A DNA stretch of 60,294 nt from Oscillospiraceae bacterium (GCA_031549605.1 JAVBPM010000023.1:1-60294); one strand, 5' to 3'. Numbered from the stretch's first letter, positions 30,557 through 58,122 are shown. Translations and numbers: made by a program. Notes: generated from the sequence alone by a model not told the origin.

Positions 30557-30643
30557 GCAGGGCGCGCCAAGCTGCTTGGGGTAGCACAGGCGACGAGATT
30601 CAGCGCGTCGGCATCGGCGCTCAGCTTGATTACAGGTGGACGT

Positions 30644-31253: not shown

Positions 31254-31452
31254 GCCACACGGCGGTCACACGCGCGGCTGGCTGACGCATAAAATTACAA
31301 TTATTTGACATTTACATTTTGCGCTATCTATTTTGGCCGGTTTGATGTACAATTAAACCATCGAGGACTAGCCATACATACTTTGGGGGGAAAACTATGA
31401 AAGCCAACATCAAACGTCTGGGCGCGCTGGCGCTTTGCCTTTCGCTGCTGCT
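31254..31452 (+). repeat. Duplicated upstream region plus signal-peptide start, copy 2
   Basis: Aligns with 30644-30855. Confidence 0.9.
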
Positions 31453-37780: not shown

Positions 37781-38407
37781 ATGGGCGTATATGTTGTAGA
37801 CCACCCGCTGGTGCAGCACAAGCTGGCCATACTGCGCGATGTCGAAACGGGTCCCAAGGAGTTCCGCGCGCTGGTGCGCGAGATTGCCATGCTGGTCACC
37901 TACGAGGCGACACGCGAGCTGCCGCTGATTGACGTCAAGGTGCAGACGCCGCTGGAGGTGGCCGACTGCAAGAAAATCGAAGGCAAAAAGATGGCCGTCG
38001 TGCCCATTCTAAGAGCCGGACTCGGCATGATGGACGGCGTGTTGGACATGGTGCCTGCCGCCAAGGTGGGTCACATCGGCCTCTACCGCGACCCCGACAC
38101 CCACGAGCCGGTCGAGTACTACTTCAAGGTGCCCTCCGACATTGAGGAGCGCATTGTCTTTGTCGTCGACCCCATGCTGGCCACCGGCGGCTCGGCCGTC
38201 GATGCCGTGCAGATGATCAAGGACAAGGGCTGCACGCAAATCAAGCTGATGGTCATGGTGGCCGCGCCCGAGGGCATTGCCGCCATGCAAAAAGCCCACC
38301 CCGACGTCGATATTTTCGCCGCCGCGATTGACCGGCAGTTGAATGATCATTGCTATATTTTGCCCGGCCTGGGCGATGCAGGGGATAGGATTTTTGGGAC
38401 GAAATAA
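37781..38407 (+). CDS. upp: Uracil phosphoribosyltransferase
   Basis: [36 protein letters not shown]. Confidence 0.97.
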
Positions 38408-38591
38408 ATGGTGCAGCGGCGCCGCAACACTTACAGATGCACAAAAGCCGCTTGAGAAAACGCAAACAAACACGGAATAGACGTCAGCGCGCCGGCAGGT
38501 GCGCAGACGACTGTTTCGCGTTTGCGAAGTCGCTTTCTCAAGCGGCTTTTGCAGCAGCCGTTAGTGTTGCGGCGCCGCTGCCCGATAGCAC
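38407..38591 (+). repeat. ~185-nt rod-like hairpin element, family B copy 1
   Basis: AATGG...TTACAGATGC...CGGAATAG...CTGTTTCG...GAAGTC...GCAGCCGTTAG...CCGATAGCAC; 18-bp perfect outer stem 38413-38430/38564-38581. Confidence 0.85.
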
Positions 38592-38681
38592 GCGTTATAA
38601 ACCCGCGCGGACGCGCGACGCAACCACCAATATCAACCCAAACGCAGATGCCGCACCCCCACAACAAAGGAGGCGCCCATC

Positions 38682-39920
38682 ATGAAAAAACTCGCCCTGA
38701 CCCTCGCCGCGCTGCTACTGCTAACCGCCTGCGGCGGCAAGCCAACGCCCACCGTGCAGCCAACCACGCCGCCGCCCGCACCCACGACCACTGTCACGGC
38801 GACCGGCACTGCCGCGCCCGAAACGGTTGAACCGACGCCTGAGCCGACGGCCACCCAGCCGCAGCCAACCCCCACGCCGACAGAGGAGACAACCCCCGAC
38901 AACCTTGCGCCTCCACTATCACTCGACGATCAATACATCCAGACGTTGATGGCGATGAGCGACGAGGAATTGGAGGCTGAAAGCCAGCGACTGCTAGAGG
39001 ACGGGTATAGCAATGCGGATGACAAGCTGAACTATGTCCAAAATAGGGGTTGGGAAATGCCAGGCGCTAAATATGCAGTTGATTGGGAGAGACTAAGAGG
39101 TTGTCAGTGGCTTGAACTCTACACAGAACATCACATGGATTTAGATGGTGACGGCAAAGAGGAATCCATCTACGTGTCTACCTATACGGTCTTCGATACC
39201 GATAAGGATGGCAGCGACGAGAGCTGGCAAAAAGTCTATCTGACAATCAACGGTAAGAGCGAGCACATCATTAGCTTGAAGAATTCTACGTACTGCCACA
39301 GCCCGTTTGCCGTGGTCGACATCAACACAAGCGACGGGCAGAAAGAACTTGTGTTTGAGGTTGATTATGTCCACGGCAGAGACTCGAAGCCACATCTTCA
39401 TTTTTTCTGCTATCGCAACGGCGCTATTCAGTATATGAACACCGGCTGCAATCAGAAACGCTTGGGCAGTGCAAAAGGCGCAGCCAACTGGATCAACGGA
39501 TTCTTTGTAAACTCGAACCTACCCGGCGACAGCACGTTGGGCTTGACAGAGCGGCTGGGTACAGCAATAGACGCGCATCGATACACCATCAACTACAAAC
39601 TGACAAAAGACCATATGCTCTACGACGACGCCGATCTGTACGACATGGTGTATTATGGTGAGGGCGACGGCGGGATGGACTATACCTTTGCCGCGCCGGT
39701 CATTGCCTACTACGACCGCGACCTCAACGGCAAAACAACGACCATAAACGCGACGTCGCAGTGTAATTTTACCCGCACCGATGGCAAAGAACTGCTTGAG
39801 GTAACGCTCAAAAGCGGCAAAAAGTTCTGGCTGAATATCAATCGGCTGCTTACGCCGGACGGGCGCGAGCTGTCGTTGGAAACACTGTTTGACGCTACGT
39901 TTGGCGCTGGCAACACGTAA
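38682..39920 (+). CDS. Tandem-array lipoprotein 1
   Basis: MKKLALTLAALLLLTAC, Pro/Thr linker, DLDGDGKEE. Confidence 0.88.
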   Translation: MKKLALTLAALLLLTACGGKPTPTVQPTTPPPAPTTTVTATGTAAPETVEPTPEPTATQPQPTPTPTEETTPDNLAPPLSLDDQYIQTLMAMSDEELEAESQRLLEDGYSNADDKLNYVQNRGWEMPGAKYAVDWERLRGCQWLELYTEHHMDLDGDGKEESIYVSTYTVFDTDKDGSDESWQKVYLTINGKSEHIISLKNSTYCHSPFAVVDINTSDGQKELVFEVDYVHGRDSKPHLHFFCYRNGAIQYMNTGCNQKRLGSAKGAANWINGFFVNSNLPGDSTLGLTERLGTAIDAHRYTINYKLTKDHMLYDDADLYDMVYYGEGDGGMDYTFAAPVIAYYDRDLNGKTTTINATSQCNFTRTDGKELLEVTLKSGKKFWLNINRLLTPDGRELSLETLFDATFGAGNT

Positions 39921-39948
39921 TCTGCGTACAACAAAGGAGGCGCCCATC

Positions 39949-41376
39949 ATGAAAAAACTCGCCCTGACCCTCGCCGCGCTGCTACTGCTAACCGCCTGCG
40001 GCAACACGCCAACGCCCACCGTGCAGCCAACCACGCCGCCGCCCGCACCCACGACCACACCCACACCGACACAGCCCAGCCCGACGGCCACCGCCGCACC
40101 CGACGACTACGCCGCCAAGCTGGCCCAGCTGCTGGCGCTGACCGCCGCCTTTGACCCCGAAAGCGTCGTCGGCGGACTGGCGGCCAACACTGCGTTCAAC
40201 AACGTCAAGGCCGCTGTCGCCGCGCTGCTGGCAGAGCCGACGGGCGTGGTTATGCTGCCGGCCGACGTCGCGCGTGTCGACAAGCAAAGCGGCTTTGCCG
40301 TTACCTGCGCTGAAACCGTGAGTGTCGACGGCACCAACTACCGGCTGGTGACCTTGACAAACACGCATACCCCGCGCATCGATGGCGCTGTTGACAGCCT
40401 GTTTGTGCAGTATTGGAACGCTGACACGTTTGGGGTTGTGCCGCTGGTTGACAGTCACACATCGTCGGGCGAGGTGACCTCACTGGCCGATGCGCGCATC
40501 ATCGCCGCACAGAGCCTAATCTCGGTCATAATAAAGCGCAACAGCGATACGTTTGCATACATAGACAGCTACCAGCTCATTGCCTTTTCGCTCGAGGGCG
40601 GCGACATTGAGAACTGCCCGCCGTCCGTGCCCGACGACGTCGACAACGGTCATTGGCAGGTTTCGGCGCAGACATATGAATTTGTCAACCCCGACCGCAC
40701 CGCGCACGGCCTGCTGGTTTACGAGCTGGGCGACGAAGACAACGCCGAGCCGACCCGCCTCACAGTCAACGGCGAGCAGCTTACCATCGCCAACACCCAA
40801 ACGCCCTCCAGCACAATCACACTGACGCTGCAAGACGGTGCGTGGACGGTGTCCGATAACACCCAGCCGCTGACCGGCATGGCGGCCATCAAGGCGCAGG
40901 TCTTTGCCGCCGACGACTTTATGCTGGAGATGAGCCTGTCCCACAAGTCAGACGGGACAGTGGTCGGTGAGTCGATTGACGCTGATACGGGTAGCGTCGA
41001 TAAGCTGTATCAGTTTGGGTCCGATTTTGGCGACACCTTCAGTGAGACATACGCCGCGGCTTCTGACTTTTATGCCAATGAAAAGGCGTTTGAAAAACAG
41101 CTGCGCATCAGTGGCTTGATACACGTCGGCGACTATATTGGTGAAATTCGCGCCGATGGCGAGTTGCGCTACTTTGTAGACAAAGGCGTTTCCACCTTCA
41201 CGCCCGTGTCGACCGATGGCAACATCCAGACCGTCGACATTCTGTTCACCAGCGACGGCGGAGAAACAGAAGTGGTCACCTACCAATTCGACATCTCCGA
41301 CCCCAGCCAGCCCAAGATAGTTGATTTTGAGGACATCTACAACTTCGGCGAGATTACCGTCAAAGAAGTCGGCTGA
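39949..41376 (+). CDS. Tandem-array lipoprotein 2 (shared leader, unrelated body)
   Basis: Same RBS, signal and linker as gene 1; body lacks the motifs shared by the other four. Confidence 0.88.
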   Translation: MKKLALTLAALLLLTACGNTPTPTVQPTTPPPAPTTTPTPTQPSPTATAAPDDYAAKLAQLLALTAAFDPESVVGGLAANTAFNNVKAAVAALLAEPTGVVMLPADVARVDKQSGFAVTCAETVSVDGTNYRLVTLTNTHTPRIDGAVDSLFVQYWNADTFGVVPLVDSHTSSGEVTSLADARIIAAQSLISVIIKRNSDTFAYIDSYQLIAFSLEGGDIENCPPSVPDDVDNGHWQVSAQTYEFVNPDRTAHGLLVYELGDEDNAEPTRLTVNGEQLTIANTQTPSSTITLTLQDGAWTVSDNTQPLTGMAAIKAQVFAADDFMLEMSLSHKSDGTVVGESIDADTGSVDKLYQFGSDFGDTFSETYAAASDFYANEKAFEKQLRISGLIHVGDYIGEIRADGELRYFVDKGVSTFTPVSTDGNIQTVDILFTSDGGETEVVTYQFDISDPSQPKIVDFEDIYNFGEITVKEVG

Positions 41377-41403
41377 TAACGCCATAGTAGGAGAGTGAGC
41401 GCC

Positions 41404-42654
41404 ATGAACAAGCTAGCCCTAACCCTCGCCGCGCTGCTACTGCTAACCGCCTGCGGCGGCAATCCAACGCCCACCGTGCAACCCACCACGCAGCAGCCGA
41501 CGGCCACGGTCACGCCGAACGGCACCGACGCGCCTGTCACGGACGAGCCGTCGCCCAGCCCAACGGCCGAGCCGACGCCCACGGCCGCCCCCGATAATCT
41601 GGCGCCGCCGCCGACCGAGGACGATGTGTACCTGCAGGCGGTGATGGCCATGAGCGATGACGAGCGGCTGGCGCTGGACCGCGAGCTGGAAGTCAATGCC
41701 ACGGACGACCCGCACGCGGGCGCGAAACAAGGCTGGCTGAATCGCCTTGAAAGCAACAGGCACCGGTTCTCTGACGACGAAGGCGGCGCGTTGCCGAACC
41801 TGTACGAGACGTTGTCCGAGCGCTTTGTGCTGCTGTACGTTGGTCAGACCTACCGCTACGACCTTGACAACGACGGTGCTGAAGACACCTTCCATGTGGC
41901 GACACACACCGACTTTGGCGCATCGCAGGAGATCTACATCACCATTAACGGCACGTGCGAGAAAATCTTGGGCATCAAGGCGCCGCGCCTGTGCTCCGAT
42001 GTCTATCTGCTGGTGGACATTGACAAGTCGGACGGCTACAAGGAGCTGGTGTTTGAGACGCAGGACGATACGCGGTCTGGACCCTATTCGAGCGCGGTGT
42101 CGCACGTCTTTTGCTACCGCAATGGGGCCATGCAGTACATGAACAGCGGCTGCAACGACAAGCGCTCGACCGACGATGACGCGCCGGGGTTCCGAGACGG
42201 CGAGGTAAAGCCTGACTGGATTAAGTGCGCCTTGACCGGCCTGCACATCGACGGCAGCGGCGCCTTGCGTGTGGAAAAGCCGTTGAACGACAATATTGAG
42301 AGGCTTAACTACTACGTCGATTACCAACTGACCAAAAGCCATATGCTGGCAGGTCAGCCCGACCAGCAGCTGCTTGACATCGCCTATGACGCCGACTACT
42401 GGTACACGTTTGAAATCCCGTTTACCGCCTATTACGAGCGCGACACCGGCAGTAAGACAACCACCATCAACGCCACCACGAAGTGCCATTTGACGCGCAC
42501 CGACAACCTGGACTGGATTGAGGTGACGCTGAAAAGCGGCAAGAAATTCTGGCTCTACATAGACGATGTCAATGGCTTGTATGGCGGCAATCCAGGCATA
42601 CAGGACTTTATCGTGCTGTTCGGGGTGAACTTAAGCTACGCCGGATTGTGCTAG
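41404..42654 (+). CDS. Tandem-array lipoprotein 3
   Basis: MNKLALTLAALLLLTAC, PDNLAPP, DLDNDG, EVTLKSGKKFWL. Confidence 0.88.
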   Translation: MNKLALTLAALLLLTACGGNPTPTVQPTTQQPTATVTPNGTDAPVTDEPSPSPTAEPTPTAAPDNLAPPPTEDDVYLQAVMAMSDDERLALDRELEVNATDDPHAGAKQGWLNRLESNRHRFSDDEGGALPNLYETLSERFVLLYVGQTYRYDLDNDGAEDTFHVATHTDFGASQEIYITINGTCEKILGIKAPRLCSDVYLLVDIDKSDGYKELVFETQDDTRSGPYSSAVSHVFCYRNGAMQYMNSGCNDKRSTDDDAPGFRDGEVKPDWIKCALTGLHIDGSGALRVEKPLNDNIERLNYYVDYQLTKSHMLAGQPDQQLLDIAYDADYWYTFEIPFTAYYERDTGSKTTTINATTKCHLTRTDNLDWIEVTLKSGKKFWLYIDDVNGLYGGNPGIQDFIVLFGVNLSYAGLC

Positions 42655-42679
42655 AGAAACCGCTAAGGAGGCGCACATC

Positions 42680-43876
42680 ATGAAAAAACTCGCCCTAACC
42701 CTCGCCGCACTGCTACTGCTAACCGCCTGCGGCAACGCGCCAACGCCCACCACGCAGCGACCGACGGCCTCAGCAACGGTTACGCCGACCGGCACTGCCA
42801 CGAGCGAAACGGTTGAACCGACGCCTGAGCCGACGGCCACCCAGCCGCAGCCAACGCCCACGCCCGACCCCGACAATCTCGCGCCGCCGCCGACCGACGA
42901 CGACTTGTACCTGCAAGCGGTGGCGGCTATGACAGGGGACGAGTGGGATGCCGAGTGCCGGCGGTTGGAGGACGAGGGCTACAACGAGGAAAATCTGCTG
43001 TTCTGCGCGGTAAACTACAAGGTGTGGGACGCCGACTATAGTCCGCGGGATGCCGAGCAGATGTCCGACTACAGGCCGCTGCACCTCAACCGAACCTACC
43101 ACGTCGATCTGGATGGCGACGGCGTTGACGAGACCGTTCACGCCGCCACGCGCTATTGCTTCGACGGCGGCAAGGAGTACAACACGCAGGGGTGGCAGAA
43201 GATATACCTGACCATCAACGGCAAGTGCGAGCAGGTGCTTAAAACCACGGGCTGCGCCTTTAGTCTCAACACCTACAACGTCGTTGACCTCGACACCTCC
43301 GACGCGTTGAAAGAGCTGGTGTTTGAAACAGGTGACTTTTCGCCCTACGACTCCATCAACCGGCTGCACTTTTTCTCCTACGACGGCGGACAGCTCAACT
43401 ACGTCAACGCCGACTGCAACAAAAGCATCGCCGAAAAGTTTGACTACATTAACAAGGATTGGATCGAGGGATCTCTGCCGCAAATCGACATTCCGGGCAA
43501 CGGAACGCTGTCCATGGCACTGGAGCTGTACAGAGTGGCCGCCAATACCTATCAGGTCAACTACAAACTGAACGACAAGCACCGTTTTGTCGACGAGGGC
43601 GGGCTGTACACCATCACGCGCGAGCTGTATGCGCCCCACGAGTGCCTGCAGCCGCTGGTGGCCTATACCCAGCGCGACCTTAGCAGCAAGACGACAACCA
43701 TCACCCCCACGACTACCTTTAACATGCTGCGCTCCGACCTGGACAAGTGGATTGAGCTTCAACTGCCGAGCGGCAACAAGTTTTGGCTGTACATAGGTGA
43801 CGGCGGCGCACGGCAGGCCAGTGATGACTGGGCTGAGCTGTTTACCGGCACAGAAGGCTGGCCGGGCAACTGGTAG
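42680..43876 (+). CDS. Tandem-array lipoprotein 4
   Basis: Same leader, PDNLAPP, DLDGDG, KELVFE, SGNKFWL. Confidence 0.88.
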   Translation: MKKLALTLAALLLLTACGNAPTPTTQRPTASATVTPTGTATSETVEPTPEPTATQPQPTPTPDPDNLAPPPTDDDLYLQAVAAMTGDEWDAECRRLEDEGYNEENLLFCAVNYKVWDADYSPRDAEQMSDYRPLHLNRTYHVDLDGDGVDETVHAATRYCFDGGKEYNTQGWQKIYLTINGKCEQVLKTTGCAFSLNTYNVVDLDTSDALKELVFETGDFSPYDSINRLHFFSYDGGQLNYVNADCNKSIAEKFDYINKDWIEGSLPQIDIPGNGTLSMALELYRVAANTYQVNYKLNDKHRFVDEGGLYTITRELYAPHECLQPLVAYTQRDLSSKTTTITPTTTFNMLRSDLDKWIELQLPSGNKFWLYIGDGGARQASDDWAELFTGTEGWPGNW

Positions 43877-43907
43877 CACCGACCCAGCAATAAAGGAGGC
43901 GCCCATC

Positions 43908-45122
43908 ATGAAAAAACTAGCCCTGACCCTCGCCGCGCTGCTATTGCTGACCGCGTGCGGCGGCAATCCAACGCCCACCGTGCAGCCCACCACGCAGCCG
44001 CCGACGGCCTCGGCCACGGTTACGCCGACCGGCACTGCCACGACCGAAACGGTTGAACCGTCGCCTGAGCCGACGGCTACCCAGTCGCAGCCAACTGCCA
44101 CACCCAGCCCCGACAATCTCGCGCCGCCGCCGACCGAGGACGACTTGTACCTGCAGCGCCTGTGGGCAATGAGCCAGTCGGAGCTGGAGGCCGAGTTGAA
44201 GGTTGTTGACGAGGACGGCAGCACGTCATTTGGAACGCGTGAGGACTATTTGTACTCACTGATTACCAGCTTGCTCTGGCGCAAATATGAAGGCGACAAT
44301 GAGACGCAGTACGGCCGCATCGAGAACAATAACGAGCTGTTGTTGATGGGCGAGACCTATCAGTACGACCTTGACGGCGACGGCAAAGAAGACACGTTTC
44401 ATGTCGCCACGCACACCACGTTCGGCGATGCGCAGGATATCTATATCACCGTGAACGGCAAGTGCGAGCCGATTATCAAAACAAGTGACGGCCGCGTCTG
44501 CTATGAAGCCTACGCGTTGGTGGACATTGACAACAGCGACAACAACAAGGAACTGGTGTTTCAAACCGCGCAGTTGTCGTATGACGAAGAAGATGTGCTG
44601 CACTTTTTCTGTTACCGAAACGGCGCCATGCAGTACATGAACACCGGCTGCAACCAAAAACGGCTGGGGAGCGCAACCGGCTCAGACAACTGGATTCATG
44701 GATATTTATCCAGCTTAATAATCACCGGCGACGGCACGGCGGACGGGACTGAGCAGATGAGTGCCGGCAATAACGTGCGCGACTTCATCATCCATTACAA
44801 GCTGACGAAAAACCACATGCTCTACGACGACGCCGATTTGTACGACATTTTGCCCCGTGGACTGGAAGACAACGGGATGGAATATACCTTTGCTAAGCCG
44901 GTCATTGCCTATTACGACCGCAATCTCAGCGGCAAAACAACGACCATCCTCGCGACGTCGCAGTGCAAATTCTCCCGCACCGATGACGAAGACTGGATCG
45001 AGGTGACGCTGAAAAGCGGCAAAAAGTTCTGGCTGAATCTTTATGAGCTGGTGACGCCGGACGGCGAGGAGCTGTCGCTGCCAAGCTTGTTTGACGTCGA
45101 ATTCTGGGCGGGCAGCATGTAA
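43908..45122 (+). CDS. Tandem-array lipoprotein 5
   Basis: Same leader, PDNLAPP, DLDGDGKED, EVTLKSGKKFWLN. Confidence 0.88.
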   Translation: MKKLALTLAALLLLTACGGNPTPTVQPTTQPPTASATVTPTGTATTETVEPSPEPTATQSQPTATPSPDNLAPPPTEDDLYLQRLWAMSQSELEAELKVVDEDGSTSFGTREDYLYSLITSLLWRKYEGDNETQYGRIENNNELLLMGETYQYDLDGDGKEDTFHVATHTTFGDAQDIYITVNGKCEPIIKTSDGRVCYEAYALVDIDNSDNNKELVFQTAQLSYDEEDVLHFFCYRNGAMQYMNTGCNQKRLGSATGSDNWIHGYLSSLIITGDGTADGTEQMSAGNNVRDFIIHYKLTKNHMLYDDADLYDILPRGLEDNGMEYTFAKPVIAYYDRNLSGKTTTILATSQCKFSRTDDEDWIEVTLKSGKKFWLNLYELVTPDGEELSLPSLFDVEFWAGSM

Positions 45123-45291
45123 GCCGCGAACTGTTGGTATAAACTTTTCCGTCAGTTACCATAATTGGCAAATAATGACAACCCGATTGGGGTATACTAA
45201 GCCGCAGTTGGGCGCGATGCGCCCGGTTGCGGCTTATTTTATTATGGCAAGCGGTCGGCGCATCGGCCGAAAAAGGCACAGGAGGGGCACT

Positions 45292-45597
45292 ATGACACTG
45301 GAAAGCACAGTCAACGGCAGCAGCCTGACGGTCAAGCTCAAGGGCGAGCTGGACCATCACGCGGCGACGCAAATTCTCAAACGGGTGGGCGAGCAAATCG
45401 AGTACGAGCGGCCCACGGCGCTGAGCATTGATATGCGCGGCGTCAGCTTTATGGACAGCTCGGGCATCGCCGTGCTGCTCGGCTCGTACCGGCGCATGCA
45501 GGAGGCGGGCGGCAGCTTCAGCGTCTGCGGCGTCAGCGACCAGTCCAAAAAGCTGCTCACGGCGGCGGGCATCGACCGCCTGATACCGTTAACGTAG
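45292..45597 (+). CDS. spoIIAA: Anti-sigma F factor antagonist (STAS)
   Basis: GELDHH, FMDSSGIAVLLG; first gene of the spoIIA operon. Confidence 0.93.
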   Translation: MTLESTVNGSSLTVKLKGELDHHAATQILKRVGEQIEYERPTALSIDMRGVSFMDSSGIAVLLGSYRRMQEAGGSFSVCGVSDQSKKLLTAAGIDRLIPLT

Positions 45598-45610
45598 GAG
45601 GAACGTACAT

Positions 45611-46057
45611 ATGAAAAGTAAGGTGCTCAACGAAATGACGCTGCAGTTTGTCAGCCGGTCGATCAACGAGGGCTTCGCGCGCACGGCGGTGGCCGCCTTT
45701 GTCGCGCAGCTCGACCCGACGCTTGACGAGCTAAACGACATCAAAACCTCGGTCAGCGAGGCGGTCACCAACTGCATTGTGCACGGCTACCCCAACGCGC
45801 TGGGCGACATCACGCTGCGCGCGCGGCTGCTGGAGGGCGGCAAGCTGGAGCTGGTGATTAAAGACAAGGGTATCGGCATTGCCGACGTGCCGACAGCGCG
45901 CAAGCCGCTGTTTACCACCGGCGGCGCCGAGCGCAGCGGCATGGGCTTTACCATCATGGAGAGCTTTATGGACACGCTTAGGGTTAAGTCAACGCCGGGC
46001 AAGGGCACGACGCTGACCATGTCGCGCCGGTTGGCGGCGCGCCTGTCGGCGCGATAG
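45611..46057 (+). CDS. spoIIAB: Anti-sigma F factor
   Basis: NEGFAR, KTSVSEAVTNCIVHGY, ERSGMGFTIMESFMD. Confidence 0.95.
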   Translation: MKSKVLNEMTLQFVSRSINEGFARTAVAAFVAQLDPTLDELNDIKTSVSEAVTNCIVHGYPNALGDITLRARLLEGGKLELVIKDKGIGIADVPTARKPLFTTGGAERSGMGFTIMESFMDTLRVKSTPGKGTTLTMSRRLAARLSAR

Positions 46058-46058
46058 C

Positions 46059-46784
46059 ATGACGACCGCCGTTGCGCCGCATGACAACGCGGCGCTGCTC
46101 CGACGCGCCCGCGCGGGCGACAAGGCCGCCTGCGAGCAGGTCGTGTTGCAAAACAACGGGCTGATTTGGTCGGTTGTGCGCCGTTTTTTCGGCCGCGGCA
46201 TCGAGGCCGACGACCTCTACCAGCTGGGCTGCGTCGGCTTTCTCAAGGCCGTGGCCGGCTTTGACGACGAGTACGGCACGCAGTTTTCCACCTACGCCGT
46301 GCCCAAAATCAGCGGGGAGATACGCCGCTTTTTGCGCGACGACGGACCGGTCAAGGTCAGCCGCAGTCTGAAAGAGCAGGCGTACGCCGTGCGGCGCGCC
46401 CGCGAGGCGCTGCTCGGCCGGCTGGGCTGCGAGCCAACCGTCAGCCAGCTGGCGGCCGAGTGCGGGCTAACCATTGAGGAGGTCGCCGCCGCCGAGCTGG
46501 CCGCCGAGCCAACACAGTCGCTGCAGCAGGGCAGTGGTCAAAACGAGGACTTCACGCTGGAGCAAGCGCTGGGCGACAGCGGCATAGAGGGTCAGCTGGT
46601 CGAACGGCTGGCGCTGAAGCAGGCGCTGGCCAGTCTACCCGAGCGCGAAAAACAGGTCATCGACCTGCGCTACTTCCACGGCCTGACCCAACAAAAAATA
46701 GCCGACCTGCTGCAAGTGTCACAGGTGCAGGTCAGCCGCATTGAGCGGAAGGGGTTGGAGGCGTTGAGAGCGCAAATGGTCTGA
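46059..46784 (+). CDS. sigF: Sporulation sigma factor F
   Basis: LIWSVVRRF, FSTYAVPKISGEIRRFLRDDGPVKVSRSLKE, SQVQVSRIE; follows spoIIAB. Confidence 0.93.
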   Translation: MTTAVAPHDNAALLRRARAGDKAACEQVVLQNNGLIWSVVRRFFGRGIEADDLYQLGCVGFLKAVAGFDDEYGTQFSTYAVPKISGEIRRFLRDDGPVKVSRSLKEQAYAVRRAREALLGRLGCEPTVSQLAAECGLTIEEVAAAELAAEPTQSLQQGSGQNEDFTLEQALGDSGIEGQLVERLALKQALASLPEREKQVIDLRYFHGLTQQKIADLLQVSQVQVSRIERKGLEALRAQMV

Positions 46785-46959
46785 GCCGCGCGCCACCTTA
46801 CGGATGCGCGAAAGGCGCTTGAGAAAATGCAAACAAACACGGAATAGCCGTCAGCGCACCCGCTGGTGTGCAGACGGCTGTTTCGTGTTTGTGAAGTCAC
46901 TTTACTCAAGCGCCTTTCGCAGCAGCCGTTAGGTGGCGCGCGGCGACAGCCGATAGCAC
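46775..46959 (+). repeat. ~185-nt rod-like hairpin element, family B copy 2
   Basis: Same motifs as copy 1; stems GCCGCGCGCCACC/GGTGGCGCGCGGC and GCGAAAGGCGCTTGAG/CTCAAGCGCCTTTCGC. Confidence 0.85.
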
Positions 46960-47055
46960 GCACCATCACGCCAAAAGGCTTGCAATCTCGCACCCGCATG
47001 GTACACTAGCAAAGCGCGGTCAGTGGCGGCGCAATACGTTTATCGGAGATGTCTC

Positions 47056-48054: not shown

Positions 48055-48058
48055 CTTT

Positions 48059-49156
48059 TTAGTTGTCAGCTGCCACGCGCAGCGTGCTGACGCTGCCGAC
48101 GCGGGTCAGTCGTCCATGCCACAGGCGTTTGCCTTTGTTGCGGTTGAGCAGCATGCCCAGCGCCGCCAGCGCCAGCAGCGCGGCCTGCACCAGCAGCACC
48201 GCCAGCCGGTATTGACTCAGCACCCACCACGCCGACAGCAGCGGCAACTGCAAAACGACCAACAGCTGACGCATAAGCAGACGCAGCCTGCCGAAGCGCG
48301 CGTGTTCGTCAGCCGACAGCTTGATGTGTACCAGCGCCTTGCCCAGCGTGCGACCGCCGGTGAGCTGCGGCAGCAGCACAAAGTAAACCAGCGTGACGCA
48401 CAGCAGCGTCCATGACGGCAGCCGCAGACCCACATGACCGGCCAGCGACAGCAGCGCGACGTCGAGCGCAAAGACGACAATGCAGTCCCACAGCAAAGCA
48501 AACAGCCGGCGCGTGTAGCTGACGCGGCGGCTTTTTTCTGCGTCGTGACGGTCCATCTCGTCGCGGTCGTCGACAAAGCGGGGAATCAGCGCGGCTAAGG
48601 CAAAGCCGAGCAGACCGCCCAGTGTGTTAATCATCAGGTCGTCGACGTCAAACAGCCGATACGGCTTGTCGTACAGGCCCAACAAACCCGACAGCTGCAA
48701 CAGCTCAAACGACAGCGACAGCAAAAAGCTCATCAGCGCCGTCTGCCACAGCCGACGCTTGAAATAAAAGCGCAAATAGACGCCAAACGGCACGGTCAGC
48801 AGCAGGTTAAACAACGGTTGCAGCACCAACCCCGTTTTGAGCGACGACAGATAGGTCGACGGGTCGCGCAGGCTAAAGGTGCTGTGCGCCAGAAATTCGT
48901 GGACAAACCAAAAGGGCTTGAGCTGCACAAACGGCCCGTGCAAATGCGCCACCGACGCCGGGTCGGGCAGCGGCAGCAGCACGAGGTAATAGGCCGCTTG
49001 CAGGTAGAACAGAAAAGAAAAAATCACAACGCTGCGCCACCACGACACCGCGCCGCGCTTGTAGTACTGCCACAGCATATAGGGCAGCGTCAGCGCCGCC
49101 GCCAGCAGCGGAAACATCATCGCCGCGGCACGGATGGGCAGCAAATACGGCGCCAT
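48059..49156 (-). CDS. VanZ-like plus RDD domain membrane protein
   Basis: FNLLLTVPFGVYL, FELLQLSGL, RLFDVDDLMINTLGG; RRLFALLWD...GRTLGK. Confidence 0.85.
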   Translation of the reverse strand: MAPYLLPIRAAAMMFPLLAAALTLPYMLWQYYKRGAVSWWRSVVIFSFLFYLQAAYYLVLLPLPDPASVAHLHGPFVQLKPFWFVHEFLAHSTFSLRDPSTYLSSLKTGLVLQPLFNLLLTVPFGVYLRFYFKRRLWQTALMSFLLSLSFELLQLSGLLGLYDKPYRLFDVDDLMINTLGGLLGFALAALIPRFVDDRDEMDRHDAEKSRRVSYTRRLFALLWDCIVVFALDVALLSLAGHVGLRLPSWTLLCVTLVYFVLLPQLTGGRTLGKALVHIKLSADEHARFGRLRLLMRQLLVVLQLPLLSAWWVLSQYRLAVLLVQAALLALAALGMLLNRNKGKRLWHGRLTRVGSVSTLRVAADN

Positions 49157-50403
49157 TAGTGCTCGAGGTTGTAGATGGCGGCAATCGGCTTGCGGTTGCG
49201 CGACACCATGAAGTAAATCAGCCCGATTTGCACCGTGGCAATGCCCAGCGCGACGTAGCGCGGGTCGCTGTGCTCGCCCACCCAGCCGATAAGCAGCACA
49301 ACCACCATGTTGACCAGCGAAATCATAACCGAAAAGAAGCTGGCAACGCGCGCGCGCATATCGGACGGAATGTAGTTCTGCGTCGCGCTTTCGCGCAGCG
49401 TGGCCGAGTTGATGCCCAGCAGTCCGCAGAAAAAGCGCAGCACCAGCATGATGGGATAGGCGACAAACAACAGCACGCCGTCGCAGGCGGCATAGATGTT
49501 GTAGACGCGCACGGCCAGCCAGTAGCGCTTTTCAAAGGGGATTTTAACCACATAATGAAACACGCCGCCGACAATGCGTCCAATCGTTTCGGCGGTGGTC
49601 AAAAAACCAAGCCGCGTGGCGCCCAGCGCCGGCGAATTTTTGAATTGAGTTGTCACCATCAGGCTTTGACCGCCGTAAGCGGCGTTGGAAAAGGTCATGT
49701 AGCTGTAAATGCTGCGAATGCCCTTTTCCTCGCGCAGGTAGCGCCACGCCGCCTTCATGTCGCCGGTGTAGCGCTTGAGCGAGAAGGGCTGCGCGGTTGT
49801 CTTGCGGTGCGCGTCGTCGACCGAAATCAGCGTTTCAACACACGCCGAGATGATGAGCAGAATGCCCTCGGCTAAAAAGAGCCAGCGGATGCCGACCGAG
49901 CGATAGGTCAGCATGGCGACCGGCGCGATAATCGCGGCAATCGAAGGGTAAATCAGCGACGCGATGGAAAAGCCCTTTTGGGCAAAGCCTTCGGGCACAA
50001 CGTCGGGAAAGAGCGAGTTAAAGGCCAGCTGGTACATGGCGCCGATGATGCCGCCCACCAGTGAAAAGACAACGAAGGTGACGTATTCAAAGGGTCGGTC
50101 CCATATGTACCACGTAAAGCCGAGCATGAAAAAGCCGTAGAGAAAGTCAAGGCCGTAAATCCACTTCTTGCGCGAGGTGCGGTCGATGGTGGGCGAGGCG
50201 AGAATCGACACAATGGCCGTGGGCAGCCAGCTGGCCACGCCAAACAGCGCCGCCAGCAACGGTGACGAGGTGTTGTCAATAACGACAAACTGCAGGCAGG
50301 TGTGCAGTCCAACGCCGCCGATGGCGCTGATTATCGTGCCCAGCGTCAAAATGGTGAAATCGCGCGTCCACAGTGTGTGGGATACTGGCTTCTGCACCGG
50401 CAC
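49156..50403 (-). CDS. MFS transporter
   Basis: Multi-TM pattern; LWTRDFTIL, IDRTSRKK, QNYIPSDMRARV. Confidence 0.88.
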   Translation of the reverse strand: MPVQKPVSHTLWTRDFTILTLGTIISAIGGVGLHTCLQFVVIDNTSSPLLAALFGVASWLPTAIVSILASPTIDRTSRKKWIYGLDFLYGFFMLGFTWYIWDRPFEYVTFVVFSLVGGIIGAMYQLAFNSLFPDVVPEGFAQKGFSIASLIYPSIAAIIAPVAMLTYRSVGIRWLFLAEGILLIISACVETLISVDDAHRKTTAQPFSLKRYTGDMKAAWRYLREEKGIRSIYSYMTFSNAAYGGQSLMVTTQFKNSPALGATRLGFLTTAETIGRIVGGVFHYVVKIPFEKRYWLAVRVYNIYAACDGVLLFVAYPIMLVLRFFCGLLGINSATLRESATQNYIPSDMRARVASFFSVMISLVNMVVVLLIGWVGEHSDPRYVALGIATVQIGLIYFMVSRNRKPIAAIYNLEH

Positions 50404-50598
50404 CGCCTCCTGTCGTAATAGGTCGTCTGCGTATTATACGGCAGAAGCGCTGCGTTGGCAAGGGAAAGATGCTATGCCATGTACAAGCAAAAGCGCCGAG
50501 CCAAAGACGTTGACAATCATTTTCAACAATGCTACTGTTACATTGTCGGTAGATAAAAATGACAGTTGGCCTACAACAGGCAGGAAGGGTGAGATAGC

Positions 50599-51321
50599 AT
50601 GGAGTTTAACGACTTTTTGTCAATCGGAGCGCTGCTATTCTTCGGGCCTGTTTTTCTGGCGTTTTATTTCTTGGGAAAACAATGGAAAAAACAGACCAAA
50701 CCCGAGCGCTGGTTGTTTTTTGTGACTTATGCCGTCACAGTAGCGATTCTGGCGATTTATGTCGGCCAGTGCGCTGAAATTCGGGGAGATATGATGAACG
50801 TGCTGCCGATGAATGTGTTTGAGACTATGTATGACGAGATGTACAGAGTCAGTGAAATGTTTACGCAGCTGTGGTCAGCGCGGTATTTACTCGTGTTTGT
50901 CTTCAGCATCGTATTCATCCTGCACACCTACGGCATGGACAAAAAATTTGCGCTTGGGATTATGACGGGATTCGTGCTTACGTATTTTGCCTTTTATGCC
51001 AAGGCGGTAGTTGATTTGCAACCGTTTGCAATCGTCAGAGACGGCGCGATGCTGACGCTTACTGTGATGATTGGCCTTATTGTGGCAGCGTTCAGTTTGC
51101 ATTTCTTTTCTGATGCAAGTAAATGCCACGCACAAGGGCGGCACATTTACTGGATGTGTATTGGCTTCGCAGTTGTCGTGTCACTGTTGTCGACACCGTG
51201 GATGGAGGGCTGGGTGTGGCTGTTGGTTTCCATTATCCCTCTGGTTTGCATGGGCTGGCTGCTGGCCCTGCCGTTTCTTAACAACGAACAAAGGAGTGTA
51301 CCCGACGAACAAGCTGTGTAG
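50599..51321 (+). CDS. Hypothetical multi-pass membrane protein with atypical AT-richer codons
   Basis: Several hydrophobic helices; purine-rich upstream; promoter-like TTGACA near 50510. Confidence 0.7.
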   Translation: MEFNDFLSIGALLFFGPVFLAFYFLGKQWKKQTKPERWLFFVTYAVTVAILAIYVGQCAEIRGDMMNVLPMNVFETMYDEMYRVSEMFTQLWSARYLLVFVFSIVFILHTYGMDKKFALGIMTGFVLTYFAFYAKAVVDLQPFAIVRDGAMLTLTVMIGLIVAAFSLHFFSDASKCHAQGRHIYWMCIGFAVVVSLLSTPWMEGWVWLLVSIIPLVCMGWLLALPFLNNEQRSVPDEQAV

Positions 51322-51418
51322 GTGCTAGGCGAAGCGGCGATCGGCATCGAATACGCCGAGTACGCGCCGTCGCTGGCGTGGGAGCTGGGCAACTGACGCG
51401 CTGAACTCACACACAACA

Positions 51419-51452
51419 ACAGACCCGACGGCAAGTTGCCGTCGGGTCTGTT
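51419..51452 (+). terminator. Hairpin terminator
   Basis: ACAGACCCGACGGCAA-G-TTGCCGTCGGGTCTGT. Confidence 0.7.
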
Positions 51453-51581
51453 GCGTGAGCCTGAAGGTTTGTCGCGCAGGCCCTTTATGTTAACGAGCTG
51501 CGCGGCCGCGTAGCCCGCACAGTTCAGTCTATGCACAAAAAGCCAAGGGGTGCGCCGCCAAGTGTATAGAATTTGTATAAC

Positions 51582-51597
51582 TTGCATAATTATGCAA
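51582..51597. promoter_or_regulatory. ARG box (ArgR/AhrC operator)
   Basis: Perfect palindrome TTGCATAATTATGCAA just upstream of the arg promoter. Confidence 0.8.
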
Positions 51598-51614
51598 AAT
51601 GTGTGCAATAATGC

Positions 51615-51643
51615 TTGCCAAAAAAAGCGGCGCGTGGTATGAT
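51615..51643 (+). promoter_or_regulatory. Sigma-A promoter of the arg operon
   Basis: TTGCCA-17 nt-TATGAT with extended TG. Confidence 0.65.
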
Positions 51644-51673
51644 GCACATATTAAAATTCAGGAGGACGACGTT

Positions 51674-52875
<1,202 letters not shown>

Positions 52876-52879
<4 letters not shown>

Positions 52880-54255
52880 AGCTGTGGGCGGGTCGGTCGG
52901 CCGTTGAGGTCGACACGCAGGCCAATGACTTTCACTCCTCCATCCGCTTTGACCAGCGGCTGTACCGGCAGGACATCGAGGGCAGCATCGCCCACGCGAC
53001 CATGCTGGGCGTGCAGGGCATTCTCGACGCCGGTGAGGTCGACAAAATCGTCGACGGGCTGCGCGGCATTTTAGCTGACATCGAGGCGGGCACCGTCGCC
53101 TTTTCGGTCGACGCCGAGGACATTCACATGAACATTGAAAGCCTGCTGACCCAACGCATCGGCGACGCGGGCAAGCGGCTGCACACGGCGCGCAGCCGCA
53201 ACGATCAGGTGGCCACCGACCTGCGGCTGTACACCAAGGAGCGCATCGACGACCTGACCGCCGCGCTGCGCGGCGTACTGAAAGCGCTGCTGGACAAGGC
53301 GGCGGCGCACACCAAGACGATTATGCCCGGCTTTACCCACCTGCAACACGCGCAGCCGGTGACCTTTGCCCACCACCTCATGGCCTACGCCGAGATGGTC
53401 AAGCGCGATTTGACGCGGCTAAGTGACTGCAAAACGCGCATGGACGAGTGCCCGCTGGGCGCCGGTGCGCTGGCCACCACGACCTATCCCATCAACCGCG
53501 CGGCCACGGCGCAGGCGCTTGGGTTTGCCGGTGTCATGGCCAACGCGCAGGACGCCGTCAGCGACCGCGACTATGTCATCGAGCTGCTGTCGGCGCTGAG
53601 CATCATCATGATGCACCTGTCGCGCTGCTGCGAGGAGCTAATTTTGTGGTCGAGCAGTGAGTTTGGCTTTATCGAGCTGGACGACGCCTACAGCACCGGC
53701 TCGTCGATTATGCCGCAGAAGAAAAACCCCGACATGGCCGAGCTGATGCGCGGCAAAACGGGTCGCGTCTATGGCGCGTTGATGGCCATGCTGACGGTCA
53801 TGAAGGGACTGCCGCTGGCCTACAACAAGGATTTGCAGGAGGACAAGGAGACGCTGTTTGACGCGCTGGACACCGTCAGCGCCTGCCTGTCTGTCTTTAC
53901 GCCCATGCTGGCCACGCTGCGCGTGCGCGACAGCGCGCTTGCCGCCGCCGCCGACCGCGGCTACCTCAACGCCACCGACTGCGCCGACTATCTGGTGCGC
54001 AAGGGCTTGCCCTTCCGCGAGGCGTATGGTATTGTGGGACGCCTTGTGGCGCAGTGCCTGGAGCTAAACCTGCCGCTTGATTTGCTGCCGTTGGCCGTCT
54101 ATCAAAAGGCGTCGCCGCTGTTTGACGACGACATTGTCGACTGCCTGTCGCTTCACCGCTGCGTCGAGGGACGCGCCGTGCCCGGCGGACCGGCACAGCA
54201 GGCGGTGCGCGCGCACATCGACGCGCTGCGCGACTGGCTGGGGTGCAGACCATGA
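52876..54255 (+). CDS. argH: Argininosuccinate lyase
   Basis: [34 protein letters not shown]. Confidence 0.98.
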
Positions 54256-55193
54256 CCAAGGTTTTCATCGACGGGCGCGAGGGCACGACCGGTCTGCAGC
54301 TGCAGCAGCGCTTAGAGGCGTTGGGCGACGTGCAGCTGATTGTGCTGGACGAGGCGCTGCGCAAGGACACCTTTGCCCGCCGCGAGGCGCTCAATGCCGC
54401 TGATTTTGCCTTTCTCTGCCTGCCCGACGCCGCCGCCCGCGAGGCGGTGGCGCTGCTTGACAACGACAGCACCGTCGTCATCGACGCCTCGACCGCCCAC
54501 CGCACGGAGGCGGGCTGGGCCTACGGCTTTCCCGAGCTGTCCGACGCCCACGCCAAGGCGGTGGCCGAATCTAGGCGCATTGCCGTGCCCGGCTGCCACG
54601 CCAGCGGCTTTTGCGCGCTGGTCTACCCGCTGGTGGCCGCCGGACTGGTGAGTGCCGACACGCAGCTGAGCTGCTTTTCGCTGACCGGCTACACCGGCGG
54701 CGGCAAGGCCATGATTGCCGAGTACGAGCAAAACCGGACGTCCGGTGACAAGTTCCACGCGCCGAGGCCCTACGCGCTGACGTTGCAGCACAAGCACCTG
54801 CCCGAAATGACAGCCGTCTGTGGGCTGGACAAAACGCCCTGGTTTCTGCCGACGGTCGGCGACTTTCCGCAGGGCATGACCGTCACGCTGCCGCTGACGC
54901 GCGATATGATGAAGCAGCCACTGTCGCTGCTGGCGCTGCAGGAGTTTTACGCCCACTACTACCAAGACCGTGGCGCCGTGCGCGTGTTGCAGCCCAACTC
55001 GGGCGACGACGCCGGACGCCTTGACCCGACGGCACTGGCCGGTTGCGACGACATGGAAATTATGCTGTTCGGCCACGACGAGCAAATGCTGCTCGTCGCG
55101 CGGCTGGACAACCTGGGCAAAGGCGCGGCAGGCGCGGCTGTGCAGGTGTTTGAGCTGAAACGGGGGAGTAGTTGTGGAAAAACGAACGCTTAG
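54252..55193 (+). CDS. argC: N-acetyl-gamma-glutamyl-phosphate reductase (short, type 2 form)
   Basis: KVFIDGREGTTGL, IDASTAHR, PGCHASGF, DNLGKGAAGAAVQ. Confidence 0.95.
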   Translation: MTKVFIDGREGTTGLQLQQRLEALGDVQLIVLDEALRKDTFARREALNAADFAFLCLPDAAAREAVALLDNDSTVVIDASTAHRTEAGWAYGFPELSDAHAKAVAESRRIAVPGCHASGFCALVYPLVAAGLVSADTQLSCFSLTGYTGGGKAMIAEYEQNRTSGDKFHAPRPYALTLQHKHLPEMTAVCGLDKTPWFLPTVGDFPQGMTVTLPLTRDMMKQPLSLLALQEFYAHYYQDRGAVRVLQPNSGDDAGRLDPTALAGCDDMEIMLFGHDEQMLLVARLDNLGKGAAGAAVQVFELKRGSSCGKTNA

Positions 55194-55614
55194 GCTGCTG
55201 GGAGCCGGTACCGGCCTTTTGCTGTTGCTGGTCATCATTACCATCAGTTTTTTTTGGATCAGGCAGTTGAATAATGGCGATGCGTCGGACGCCCACATTG
55301 ACGTGGGCGAATCGACGACGCGCAGCCTGTCTGACCGCAAAACGGCGGCAGACGTCGTGCTGGATGAGTTTCGCAGCTTTAAGGATTGCACGCTGCTCAA
55401 TCTGCGGTATGACGAGCAGCTGACCCAGGACGAACTCCGAATAGACCTGGCGCCCGACGCCGACCTGTTTATCTCATTTTACAGCGATTTCAAAACCGGC
55501 GACAAACACGACGGCGGGTTTGAATCGAATAGCGTCTACAAAAACTGGAAATGGACGGTTGGCCGCGACGCCGCAACGGGCGAGTGGACGGTTGTTTCAT
55601 ACGGCTACGCCTAA
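55174..55614 (+). CDS. Membrane-anchored hypothetical protein (DUF4829-like) inside the arg operon
   Basis: N-terminal TM; C-terminal YKNWKWTVGRD...WTVVSYGY. Confidence 0.7.
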   Translation: MEKRTLRLLGAGTGLLLLLVIITISFFWIRQLNNGDASDAHIDVGESTTRSLSDRKTAADVVLDEFRSFKDCTLLNLRYDEQLTQDELRIDLAPDADLFISFYSDFKTGDKHDGGFESNSVYKNWKWTVGRDAATGEWTVVSYGYA

Positions 55615-55644
55615 GCCAATATCACAACACACGGAGGAATCCCC

Positions 55645-56859
55645 ATGCCATTCATCAACGGCGGCGTGACCGCTGCCAAGGGCTTTACCGCCGCCGGTAT
55701 CCATGCCGGTATCCGCAAGAATAAGAGCAAGCTCGACCTCGCGCTGCTGGTGGCCGACGCGACCGCCGTCTGCGCCGCGACCTACACCACCAACGTCGTC
55801 AAGGCCGACCCGCTGCTGGTAACGCAGCAGCATCTGGCCAACGGCCAAGCGCGCGCGGTGGTCATTAACAGCGGCAACGCCAACGCCTGCGCCATCGACG
55901 GCTACGCCAACGCGCAGCTGACGGCGCGCGAGGCCGCCGCCGTGCTGGGCGTAGACCCGACCGACGTTTTGGTCGCCAGCACCGGCGTCATTGGCCAGCG
56001 GCTACCCGTCGAAACCATTGTCGCGGCGCTGCCGACGCTGAGCCAAAAGCTGTCGGTCGACGGCGCACACGACGCCGCGCTGGCGATTATGACCACCGAC
56101 ACCACGTGTAAAGAATGCGCCGTGGCGCTGGAGCTTTCCGGCGTGCAAGTGACCATCGGCGGCATGGCCAAGGGCAGCGGCATGATTCACCCCAACATGG
56201 GCACGATGCTGGCCTTTGTCACCACCGACTGCGCCATCGAGCGGCCGTTGCTGCAACAGGCGCTGCGCGGTGTCACCGACAAAACCTTCAACCGCGTTAG
56301 CGTCGACGGCGACACCTCGACCAACGACATGTGCATTGTCATGGCGTCGGGCGCGGCGCACAACGCGCTTATTTCCGAGAAAAACGACGACTACGCCGCC
56401 TTTGTACAGGCGCTGACCGCCGTTTGCCGCACGCTGGCGCGCGCCATGGCCGCCGACGGCGAGGGCGCGTCCAAGCTGCTGACCTGCAATGTGTCCAACG
56501 CGCCCGACGAGGCTTCTGCCGTGGCGCTGGCCAAGAGCGTCATCAGCTCTTCGCTGGTCAAGACGGCCATGTTTGGCCGCGACGCCAACTGGGGCCGCGT
56601 CATCTGCGCGCTGGGCTATTCAGGCGTGGCGTTTGACCCAAACACCGTCGACATCGCCTTTGCCGCCGATGGTCAGACGCTGGCCGTCTGCCGGCAGGGC
56701 AGGGGTCTTGACTTTGACGAGGACGCCGCGCTGGCGCTGCTGAGCCACCACGAGGTCGATATAAACGTCGATTTACACGCCGGAAACGCCAGCGCCGACG
56801 CGTACGGCTGTGATTTGACGTATGGCTACGTTAAAATTAACGGCGATTATAGAACCTAA
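55645..56859 (+). CDS. argJ: Bifunctional ornithine acetyltransferase
   Basis: NSGNANAC, KGSGMIHPNMGTML, DGDTSTND, DGEGASK, INGDYRT. Confidence 0.97.
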   Translation: MPFINGGVTAAKGFTAAGIHAGIRKNKSKLDLALLVADATAVCAATYTTNVVKADPLLVTQQHLANGQARAVVINSGNANACAIDGYANAQLTAREAAAVLGVDPTDVLVASTGVIGQRLPVETIVAALPTLSQKLSVDGAHDAALAIMTTDTTCKECAVALELSGVQVTIGGMAKGSGMIHPNMGTMLAFVTTDCAIERPLLQQALRGVTDKTFNRVSVDGDTSTNDMCIVMASGAAHNALISEKNDDYAAFVQALTAVCRTLARAMAADGEGASKLLTCNVSNAPDEASAVALAKSVISSSLVKTAMFGRDANWGRVICALGYSGVAFDPNTVDIAFAADGQTLAVCRQGRGLDFDEDAALALLSHHEVDINVDLHAGNASADAYGCDLTYGYVKINGDYRT

Positions 56860-57044
56860 TGGCTTGAGCCGATTGACCCGTTACGGATGCGGCAACGCGC
56901 CGCGACCATCAACGCAAACAACTCGGAATAGACGCAGGCCACGCTCGCAAGCGAGGACGGCGGCTGTTTTGAGTTATGAAGTCGTTGTGGGCACGGTGTG
57001 ATTGCGGCTGCCGTTAGGGGTCAGGCGGCGAGTGCCGATAGCAC
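56858..57044 (+). repeat. ~187-nt rod-like hairpin element, family B copy 3
   Basis: AATGG...TTACGGATGC...CGGAATAG...CTGTTTTG...GAAGTC...GCCGTTAG...CCGATAGCAC. Confidence 0.85.
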
Positions 57045-57075
57045 CGAAATTTACAAACCTAGGAGGCTGCCCACC

Positions 57076-57939
57076 ATGATTCACATCGACAACCTCAACC
57101 GCGCCGAGGTGCTGAGCGAGGCGCTGCCCTACATTCAGGAGTACAACAAGCAGATCGTCGTCATCAAGTACGGCGGTGCCGCCATGCAAAGCGCCGAGCT
57201 GAAACAGGCCGTTATCAGCGACATCGTGCTGCTGAGCTTGGTCGGCATCAAGGTCGTGCTGGTGCACGGCGGCGGGCCGGAAATCAACGAGCTGCTGGGC
57301 AAAATGGGCAAGCAGGCCAAGTTTGTCAACGGTCTGCGCTACACCGACGAGGAGACGATGGACGTCGTGCAGATGGTGCTGTGCGGCAAAATCAGCAAGG
57401 AGCTGGTGGCCAAAATCGGCCAGACGGGCGGTCGCGCGCTCAGCCTGTCGGGCATAGACGGCAACCTGTTTACCGCCCGTCGCATGACCGAGGAGGGCGA
57501 CCTCGGGCTGGTGGGCGACATTGTCGGCGTCGACCCGCAGCCGGTGCTCGACGCGCTGGACAACGGCTATATCCCCGTCATCTCAACCGTGGCGGCGGGA
57601 CAGGACGCCAACGTCAGCTACAACATCAACGCCGACACCGCCGCGTCGCGGCTGGCCATCGCGCTCAAGGCCAAGAAGCTGATGCTGCTGACCGACGTGC
57701 GCGGCATACTGCGCGACGCCAGGGACGACAGCACGCTGCTGCCCGTCGTGCCGCTGCACGAGGTGCCGCGTCTGGTCAAGGAAAAGGTCATCACCGGCGG
57801 CATGAAGCCCAAGGTCGACTGCTGCGTACAAGCCGTCCGCGAGGGCGTAACCCGCACCCACATCCTAGACGGCCGCATCCCGCATGCCATTCTCATTGAG
57901 CTGCTGAGTAATACTGGGGTCGGTACCATGATTTTGTAA
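57076..57939 (+). CDS. argB: Acetylglutamate kinase
   Basis: IKYGG, VHGGGPEI, GLRYTD, NINAD, GGMKPK. Confidence 0.97.
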   Translation: MIHIDNLNRAEVLSEALPYIQEYNKQIVVIKYGGAAMQSAELKQAVISDIVLLSLVGIKVVLVHGGGPEINELLGKMGKQAKFVNGLRYTDEETMDVVQMVLCGKISKELVAKIGQTGGRALSLSGIDGNLFTARRMTEEGDLGLVGDIVGVDPQPVLDALDNGYIPVISTVAAGQDANVSYNINADTAASRLAIALKAKKLMLLTDVRGILRDARDDSTLLPVVPLHEVPRLVKEKVITGGMKPKVDCCVQAVREGVTRTHILDGRIPHAILIELLSNTGVGTMIL

Positions 57940-58122
57940 TGGCTTGAGCCGGTTGAACCGTTACGGATGCGGCAACGCGCCGCGACCATCAACGCAAGTA
58001 ACTCGGAATAGGCGGTGGGCACACCGCGTGTGGCCATCGACTGTTTCGAGTTATGAAGTCGTTGTGGGCGCGGTGTGCTTGCCAGCAGCCGTTAGGGTTC
58101 AGGCGGCGAGTGCCGATCCCCG
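57938..58122 (+). repeat. ~185-nt rod-like hairpin element, family B copy 4
   Basis: Close to copy 3 (shared GTTACGGATGCGGCAACGCGCCGCGACCATCAACGCAA), different apical stem. Confidence 0.85.

Follow-up and report, generated by a model that had tools for sequence, protein, structure and literature searches.

A ~180-nt rod-shaped repeat docked at stop codons, probably mobile, in the genome of an uncultured Oscillospiraceae bacterium

The window analysed here is a whole 60,294-nucleotide stretch of an Oscillospiraceae genome (GCA_031549605.1, JAVBPM010000023.1:1-60294). Behind upp, a sigma-factor gene, argJ and argB it carries four copies of a gene-less element of ~180 nt, each copy forming a single rod, to which we refer as the rod repeat. 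The features needed below are as follows; a slash within a motif marks a junction.

30321–30566, + strand: hairpin modules E (30321–30426) and D (30474–30566), which elsewhere in the genome stand in composite arrays with the rod repeat
38378–38407, + strand: C-poor, G-rich 30-nt flank at the end of upp, a trait common to the upstream flanks of the family
38408–38591, + strand: copy 1, ATGG...CCGAT-AGCAC, immediately following the upp stop codon TAA (upp at 37781–38407)
46746–46775, + strand: 30-nt flank at the end of the sigma-factor gene, C-poor and G-rich in base composition
46776–46959, + strand: copy 2, whose ATG GTC TGA (46776–46784) forms the final two codons and stop of the sigma-factor gene
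56859–57044, + strand: copy 3, whose first base completes the argJ stop (TA/A); bridged intact by an RNA-library contig
57939–58121, + strand: copy 4, of the CCGAT-CCCC end type, whose first base completes the argB stop (TA/A)

The sigma-factor gene lies behind a STAS/HATPase pair and is presumably sigF-type by this context. The four copies described in the original prediction are present at these sites, with the motifs in the stated order and each folding without branches into one hairpin. The conserved sequence opens with ATGG (38408, 46776, 56859, 57939), but the A that had been placed in front of it belongs to the flank (A in 13 of 24). Likewise, the CAAAC/GAAGT loop is one of several middle-loop types and not a family-wide trait. 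Other repeats are also present in the window. Directly behind copy 1, five tandem paralogous genes of ~400 aa each occupy 38682–45122 and have no Pfam match. A 798-aa frame at 24879–27275 consists of three internal ~650-nt repeats, with no confident Pfam match. A duplicated upstream region plus gene start of ~160 nt (30719–30881 and 31316–31478, 90% identical, with an inverted match at 21804–21855) precedes a 131-aa frame and an SLH gene.

The host is an uncultured bacterium, identified as a spore-forming Clostridia type by its SLH proteins and sporulation genes, and the sequencing runs containing it are invertebrate gut samples from one study. Iterated nhmmer searches of its assembly (1.95 Mb, 88 contigs, 96.9% complete, 58.5% GC) returned 35 loci, 30 of them full length and five partial or cut by a contig end, and a covariance model found the identical set. 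The repeat had been predicted to be multicopy, and the four window copies turn out to be four of these 35. Pairwise identity among the 30 full-length copies averages 0.59 (range 0.43–0.97).

The rod repeat is known from this one uncultured species. As predicted, it belongs to no named family: Rfam gave no match at the gathering threshold, and below it only generic hairpin matches (e.g. MIR1437, 55.8 vs 168 bits). The covariance model (R1) had no match in 60 relatives, with 45 candidates scored per genome, and with looser filters in five relatives the best E-value was 0.015. Among 21 stretches of the same-genus relative G001 (about one fifth of its genome) and 11 viral pattern matches, the model gave one match at E 0.17. 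Exact-pattern scans yielded two metagenome, three genome and no viral matches, none of them backed by the model; distant relatives could escape such scans because the pattern overlooks many members of the family itself, window copies 1 and 3 among them. BLAST of the element against plasmid and phage records found no match, and a literature search, with subscription journals outside its scope, found no description of the family.

All 30 full copies fold into a single hairpin (z-scores from –6 to –19.5, 25 shuffles each). The prediction that stems differ between copies while pairing is kept was borne out in the four-copy alignment, where two-sided changes affect 22 of 58 pairs, and extends to the family: 91.2% of cells are paired across the 30 copies, and 44 of 53 consensus pairs show such changes. 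The larger alignment had been proposed as a check on the structural claim, and its covariation score, 0.565, lies far above shuffled (0.176; 0 of 500 as high) and slid controls (≤0.10), although these contrasts are inflated by a structure derived from the same alignment and by the relatedness of copies. While the stems turn over, specific irregularities stay: T.T in 29/30 copies, T.G in 29/30, A.G in 25/30 and a bulged A in 24/30, in line with the conserved mismatches noted earlier. The apical and middle loops are variable. Pairing between the ends of the element is limited to ATGG/CCGAT and includes a bulge, and tandem units close in silico into a near-perfect 179-nt circle.

The predicted G.U pairs of the GGAAUAG helix, as G.U and U.G, are present in all four window copies. 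Family-wide, paired columns hold 144 G.T against 34 A.C, and the + strand is the more stable one in 29/30 copies with RNA parameters and in 30/30 with DNA parameters. Since G.T outnumbers A.C, the sense strand, already favoured in the original prediction, is taken to be the strand that folds. The predicted folded form fits RNA and single-stranded DNA alike, and a mutation bias of the non-template strand (deamination) could supply part of the G.T polarity.

Beyond what had been predicted, the copies dock at stop codons and form tandem arrays. A readable 5′-end is available for 33 copies, nine of which follow another module while 24 lead an array. In 21 of the leading copies the element begins at a stop codon belonging to a gene on the same strand: eight complete the stop as TA/A or TG/A, four lie just behind a complete stop (–3, –4, –7, –11), and nine sit upstream of the natural stop and supply one themselves (+6 in five cases, +8 in two, +17, +40). 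Twenty leading copies fall within –11 to +17 nt of the stop; a random tolerated site docks with a probability of 0.094 per copy, for a docking window set after seeing the data. The three remaining leading copies are not at a gene end, and in our reading each points towards the start of a divergently oriented gene; a 420-codon frame of uncertain status that ends 25 nt upstream of one of them was left uncounted.

The docked hosts include upp, argJ, argB, two sporulation-type sigma factors, truA, DegV, a terminase and a CHAP lysin; they are unrelated and share no functional theme. On contig C15 both orientations occur within 3 kb, each copy following its gene and not the direction of replication. 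Prophage-type genes (terminase, scaffold, CHAP lysin) are scattered among non-phage genes on contigs C47, C59, C82 and C83, possibly a decayed or domesticated prophage, and these contigs carry several copies.

The argJ and argB genes of G001 stop at the same codon as here and have no element, though this relative is distant (ArgJ identity 63%). Its empty spacer between argB and argD has roughly the length of the sequence that follows copy 4, ~40 nt including the argD ribosome-binding site. For two more hosts the G001 orthologue extends one or two codons further than the gene here; a close orthologue was available for four of 20 hosts, in the fetched fifth or so of the G001 genome. The element alters the final residues of host proteins, to M-A-stop or M-V-stop. 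Separately, the reading frames of five hosts close with ATG-NNN-stop immediately ahead of the ATGG that opens the element (C15:2368, C50:5660, C63:14753, C76:37980, C83:16166), and methionine stands at that pre-stop place in only 25 of 1407 long genes. These ends look as if the first 8 nt of an earlier copy had remained.

The flank upstream of the element is itself unusual. Within 30 nt it has a C content of 3.9 vs 7.6 and a GC skew of +0.51 vs +0.04. Over the last 10 codons C occupies 0.16 of 4-fold sites, against 0.46 for the host genes themselves and 0.37 for the ends of other genes, and this avoidance is absent from gene ends before ordinary hairpins. C-to-T mutation alone is rejected as the cause because 4-fold sites shift to G (0.64) and not to T (0.14), while 2-fold sites move to T (21/28). 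The flank resembles a Shine-Dalgarno sequence, which is explained by composition (–5.56 vs –5.42 shuffled), and no copy-specific or guide-like pairing between flank and element was found. The idea that the outer helix copies the end of the host gene in inverted form was discarded, as outer stems recur between loci.

Expression could be followed in RNA contigs from one study, whose ends and strand are unreadable and in which DNA carry-over is possible. In run X2 a single 1777-nt contig spans argJ, copy 3 and argB, with copy 3 unspliced; elsewhere, three 667-nt bins that have depth in X1 have none in X2. Run X3 held only foreign pieces, and copy 4 is without coverage in the RNA run. No joint skipping copy 3 or 4 and no circle joint at copy 3 was seen in the RNA contigs, which drop rare forms. 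Neither is there an intrinsic terminator (short stem plus U tract) in 56700–58300, where the RNA contig continues into argB. Under the mobile reading preferred below, any effect of the rod on mRNA stability would be a by-product.

Several features of the genomic distribution point to mobility. Copies form head-to-tail pairs with the junctions CCGAT-AGC/ATGG and CCGAT-CTCC/ATGG as well as convergent arrays, and near-identical copies (up to 0.97) lie on different contigs. After merging, 23 loci fall on 12 of the 88 contigs, where a simulation expects 18.7 (P 1.5e-4); these contigs hold 16% of the bases, a figure biased by breakage at repeats, which shortens copy-bearing contigs. No target-site duplication was found (flank score 0.62 vs 0.85 permuted; 21 arrays, no conspecific empty site). 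Mobility is inferred rather than observed directly because no filled/empty allele pair was seen within the species and G001 is distant.

Judging by the sequences, copies also appear to swap whole helices. Shared ancestry is strongly correlated between the two arms of one helix (r 0.77–0.81) and weakly between neighbouring helices (0.13–0.33), compared with 0.37–0.46 for neighbouring helices in a clonal simulation, which gave 1.6 discordant helix pairs vs 16 observed. The exchange test, with a tree built from the same data, gave P 0.005 for the apex and a borderline 0.065 for P1–P3.

The rod repeat has partner modules, C (~130 nt), D (~95 nt), E (~105 nt) and a further one, G, which stand mostly on its contigs and form ordered composite arrays (C15:6260–7138, C46:70–451, C59:14231–14559, C76:22742–23004). 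Module C has the TGAGCC start and GTGCC end in common with the element, is also found behind stop codons and includes one hybrid; its pattern has no viral match. The module D pattern was matched in one of 401 genomes, that of the host.

The linked transposase, HUH nuclease, reverse transcriptase or recombinase that was to be looked for was not found beside the copies. The host assembly contains no match to Y1_Tnp, REP tyrosine transposase, Y2, TnpB, IS110 or reverse transcriptase (RVT_1), and no RAYT-like motif in its 12,219 frames, and scans of 46, 36 and 63 proteins encoded near copies revealed no mobilising enzyme. Eight tyrosine-recombinase matches occur in the genome, none beside a copy, the nearest on a shared contig (C33) being 35 kb away. 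Other enzymes unlinked to any copy are a 617-aa GIY-YIG protein, also present in G001, a Rep_trans protein on C21 and a motif on C55 that we take to be Mob/Pre-like. The genome also holds family A, a ~260-nt repeat of 52 segments on 35 contigs with duplicated hairpins flanking it (in the window at 4827–5088, 11975–12236 and 21930–22191). The IS1182-type transposase domain expected for this 52-copy family, DDE_Tnp_1_6, has no match in the assembly; the missing enzyme of the rod repeat thus weighs little, because family A's expected domain is also missing from the 88 contigs.

Mobility of some kind is highly probable for the rod repeat. Our preferred reading, to which we give a probability of roughly 0.6, is that the repeat is non-autonomous and travels as a DNA hairpin folded from the sense strand, mobilised in trans by an HUH-type enzyme. 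Hairpin elements that make no duplication are mobilised by HUH-type enzymes, and by this analogy the enzyme would likely be of the HUH (Y1 tyrosine) type, cutting and pasting the folded single strand with no target-site duplication. It would read the shape of the rod together with the T.T, A.G, T.G and bulged-A marks, which would explain why stems drift while pairing and marks stay. New copies would land near old ones, on the sense strand of the gene, in C-poor gene ends, and would survive where the element restores a stop (TA/A, TG/A, ATG GCT TGA). Inner segments would be exchanged between conserved boxes, with only the rod-keeping exchanges persisting.

Insertion with little preference is unlikely; docking would then be only what selection leaves, copies being best tolerated at a gene end and damaging to the transcript when reversed. 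Such selection is the explanation given in PMC3049150 for pneumococcal repeats enriched behind genes, and it agrees with the three of 24 leading copies away from a gene end and with the near stops supplied by all copies upstream of the natural one (+6 to +40). Yet only four of 21 copies follow a complete stop although spacers offer many tolerated sites, eight of 21 share one phase, the ~40-nt argB spacer lies whole on the 3′ side (one case), and synonymous C avoidance over ten codons is absent before ordinary hairpins. Quite unlikely is a move through an RNA stage, in which the rod would become attached to mRNA severed where the ribosome terminates and would then return to DNA by reverse transcription. 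RelE-type nucleases cut between the second and third stop-codon base, which is the position of the commonest junction; the skewed flank has roughly the length of a ribosome footprint, orientation follows transcription, the G.U polarity is on the sense strand, and tandem units close into the 179-nt circle. However, 13 of 21 junctions lie elsewhere, and selection alone would favour the TA/A and TG/A phase because A/TGG restores the stop after TA or TG. Moreover, RVT_1 was not found, clustering within 16% of the assembly agrees with short-range hopping as DNA, and the RNA contigs, which drop rare forms, show neither skip nor circle joint at copy 3. In its strongest form, a selfish ~180-nt rod RNA written into the chromosome where ribosomes terminate, by joining to stop-cut mRNA and copying back, this scenario is very improbable; if it held, a viroid-sized element whose helices are interchangeable would be using translation to guide its transposition.

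The original prediction had left open a mobile element or a 3′-UTR/intercistronic RNA element. The mobile option fits; a dedicated RNA element fits poorly because of unrelated and prophage-type hosts, absence from relatives, tandem arrays and the three undocked leads of 24. A host-selected stabiliser or processing site at 3′-ends and between cistrons, which we regard as improbable, would account for the strong structural conservation, the sense placement and the presence of copy 3 inside the contig spanning argJ-argB, and effects of this kind are reported for ERIC and Correia elements in the portions of PMC2229807 and PMC3049150 used here. Against it stand the lack of a functional theme among hosts, absence from 60 relatives by model search, convergent as well as tandem arrays, local clustering and the absence of a terminator-like tail. 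The imperfect hairpin at stop codons also recalls a system of recombination sites behind gene cassettes. Integron attC sites are folded single strands with extrahelical bases at gene ends, and eight tyrosine-recombinase matches exist in the genome. Nevertheless, the attC boxes RYYYAAC and GTTRRRY occur together in none of the 30 copies, the hosts are operon genes syntenic with G001, and no recombinase match lies beside a copy (35 kb at the nearest on C33), so that the rod repeat is almost certainly not attC-like.

The rod repeat bears on the question of what lets small hairpin repeats spread when they lack a cognate transposase, and what places them at stop codons. It offers a clean test case, as 30 full copies define the kept mismatches, the ends are sharp and there is no target duplication. 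The junction phase within the stop and the synonymous C avoidance over ten codons are measurable signatures that separate targeting from selection.

The rod repeat was compared with known systems on the basis of excerpts from PMC3733652, PMC2229807, PMC1590033, PMC3116915, PMC3049150, PMC3184786 and PMC2267715. Like REPIN, REP and BIME sequences as described there (PMC3116915, PMC3733652), it is a non-coding hairpin repeat with tandem and mosaic clusters and no target-site duplication; REP ends often provide the stop codon of the flanking gene (PMC3733652). Unlike REPIN and REP in these excerpts, it is one 180-nt rod with internal mismatches and covariation along the whole helix and not a doublet of 20–40-nt palindromes, and it keeps a fixed sense orientation and is confined to part of the assembly. 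A GTAG/GGAG/CGTC tag at the hairpin foot was found in one of 21 cases. In the REP/REPIN-RAYT system the cognate RAYT is flanked by repeats; none was found here in the 88-contig assembly, which also gives no DDE_Tnp_1_6 match for family A.

With ERIC/IRU, YPAL/RU-2, Correia and RUP elements it shares a length of 100–200 bp, non-coding nature and a long stem-loop, according to the sections of PMC2229807 consulted. A-G and U-U mispairs and co-transcription with upstream genes are common to MITE-like repeats (same sections) and the rod, where co-transcription rests on one RNA contig. YPAL, of ~168 bp, is described there as being without TA ends. Compared by description, however, ERIC/IRU, YPAL/RU-2, Correia and RUP make target-site duplications, while the rod repeat shows none and has no TA ends. 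As described in PMC3184786, bcr1 of the Bacillus cereus group is similar in being a transcribed, lineage-restricted Firmicute element of ~155 bp with compensatory changes that keep the fold, and in having no known mobiliser. It differs in being cruciform-like, with two stem-loops and 5-bp direct repeats, where the rod repeat is one rod without direct repeats. Thus, the rod repeat departs from REPIN/BIME in a defining trait (tag, doublet) and from ERIC, YPAL and bcr1 in another (duplication): the sequence family is new, while its kind, ERIC/YPAL/bcr1/REPIN-like, is already known.
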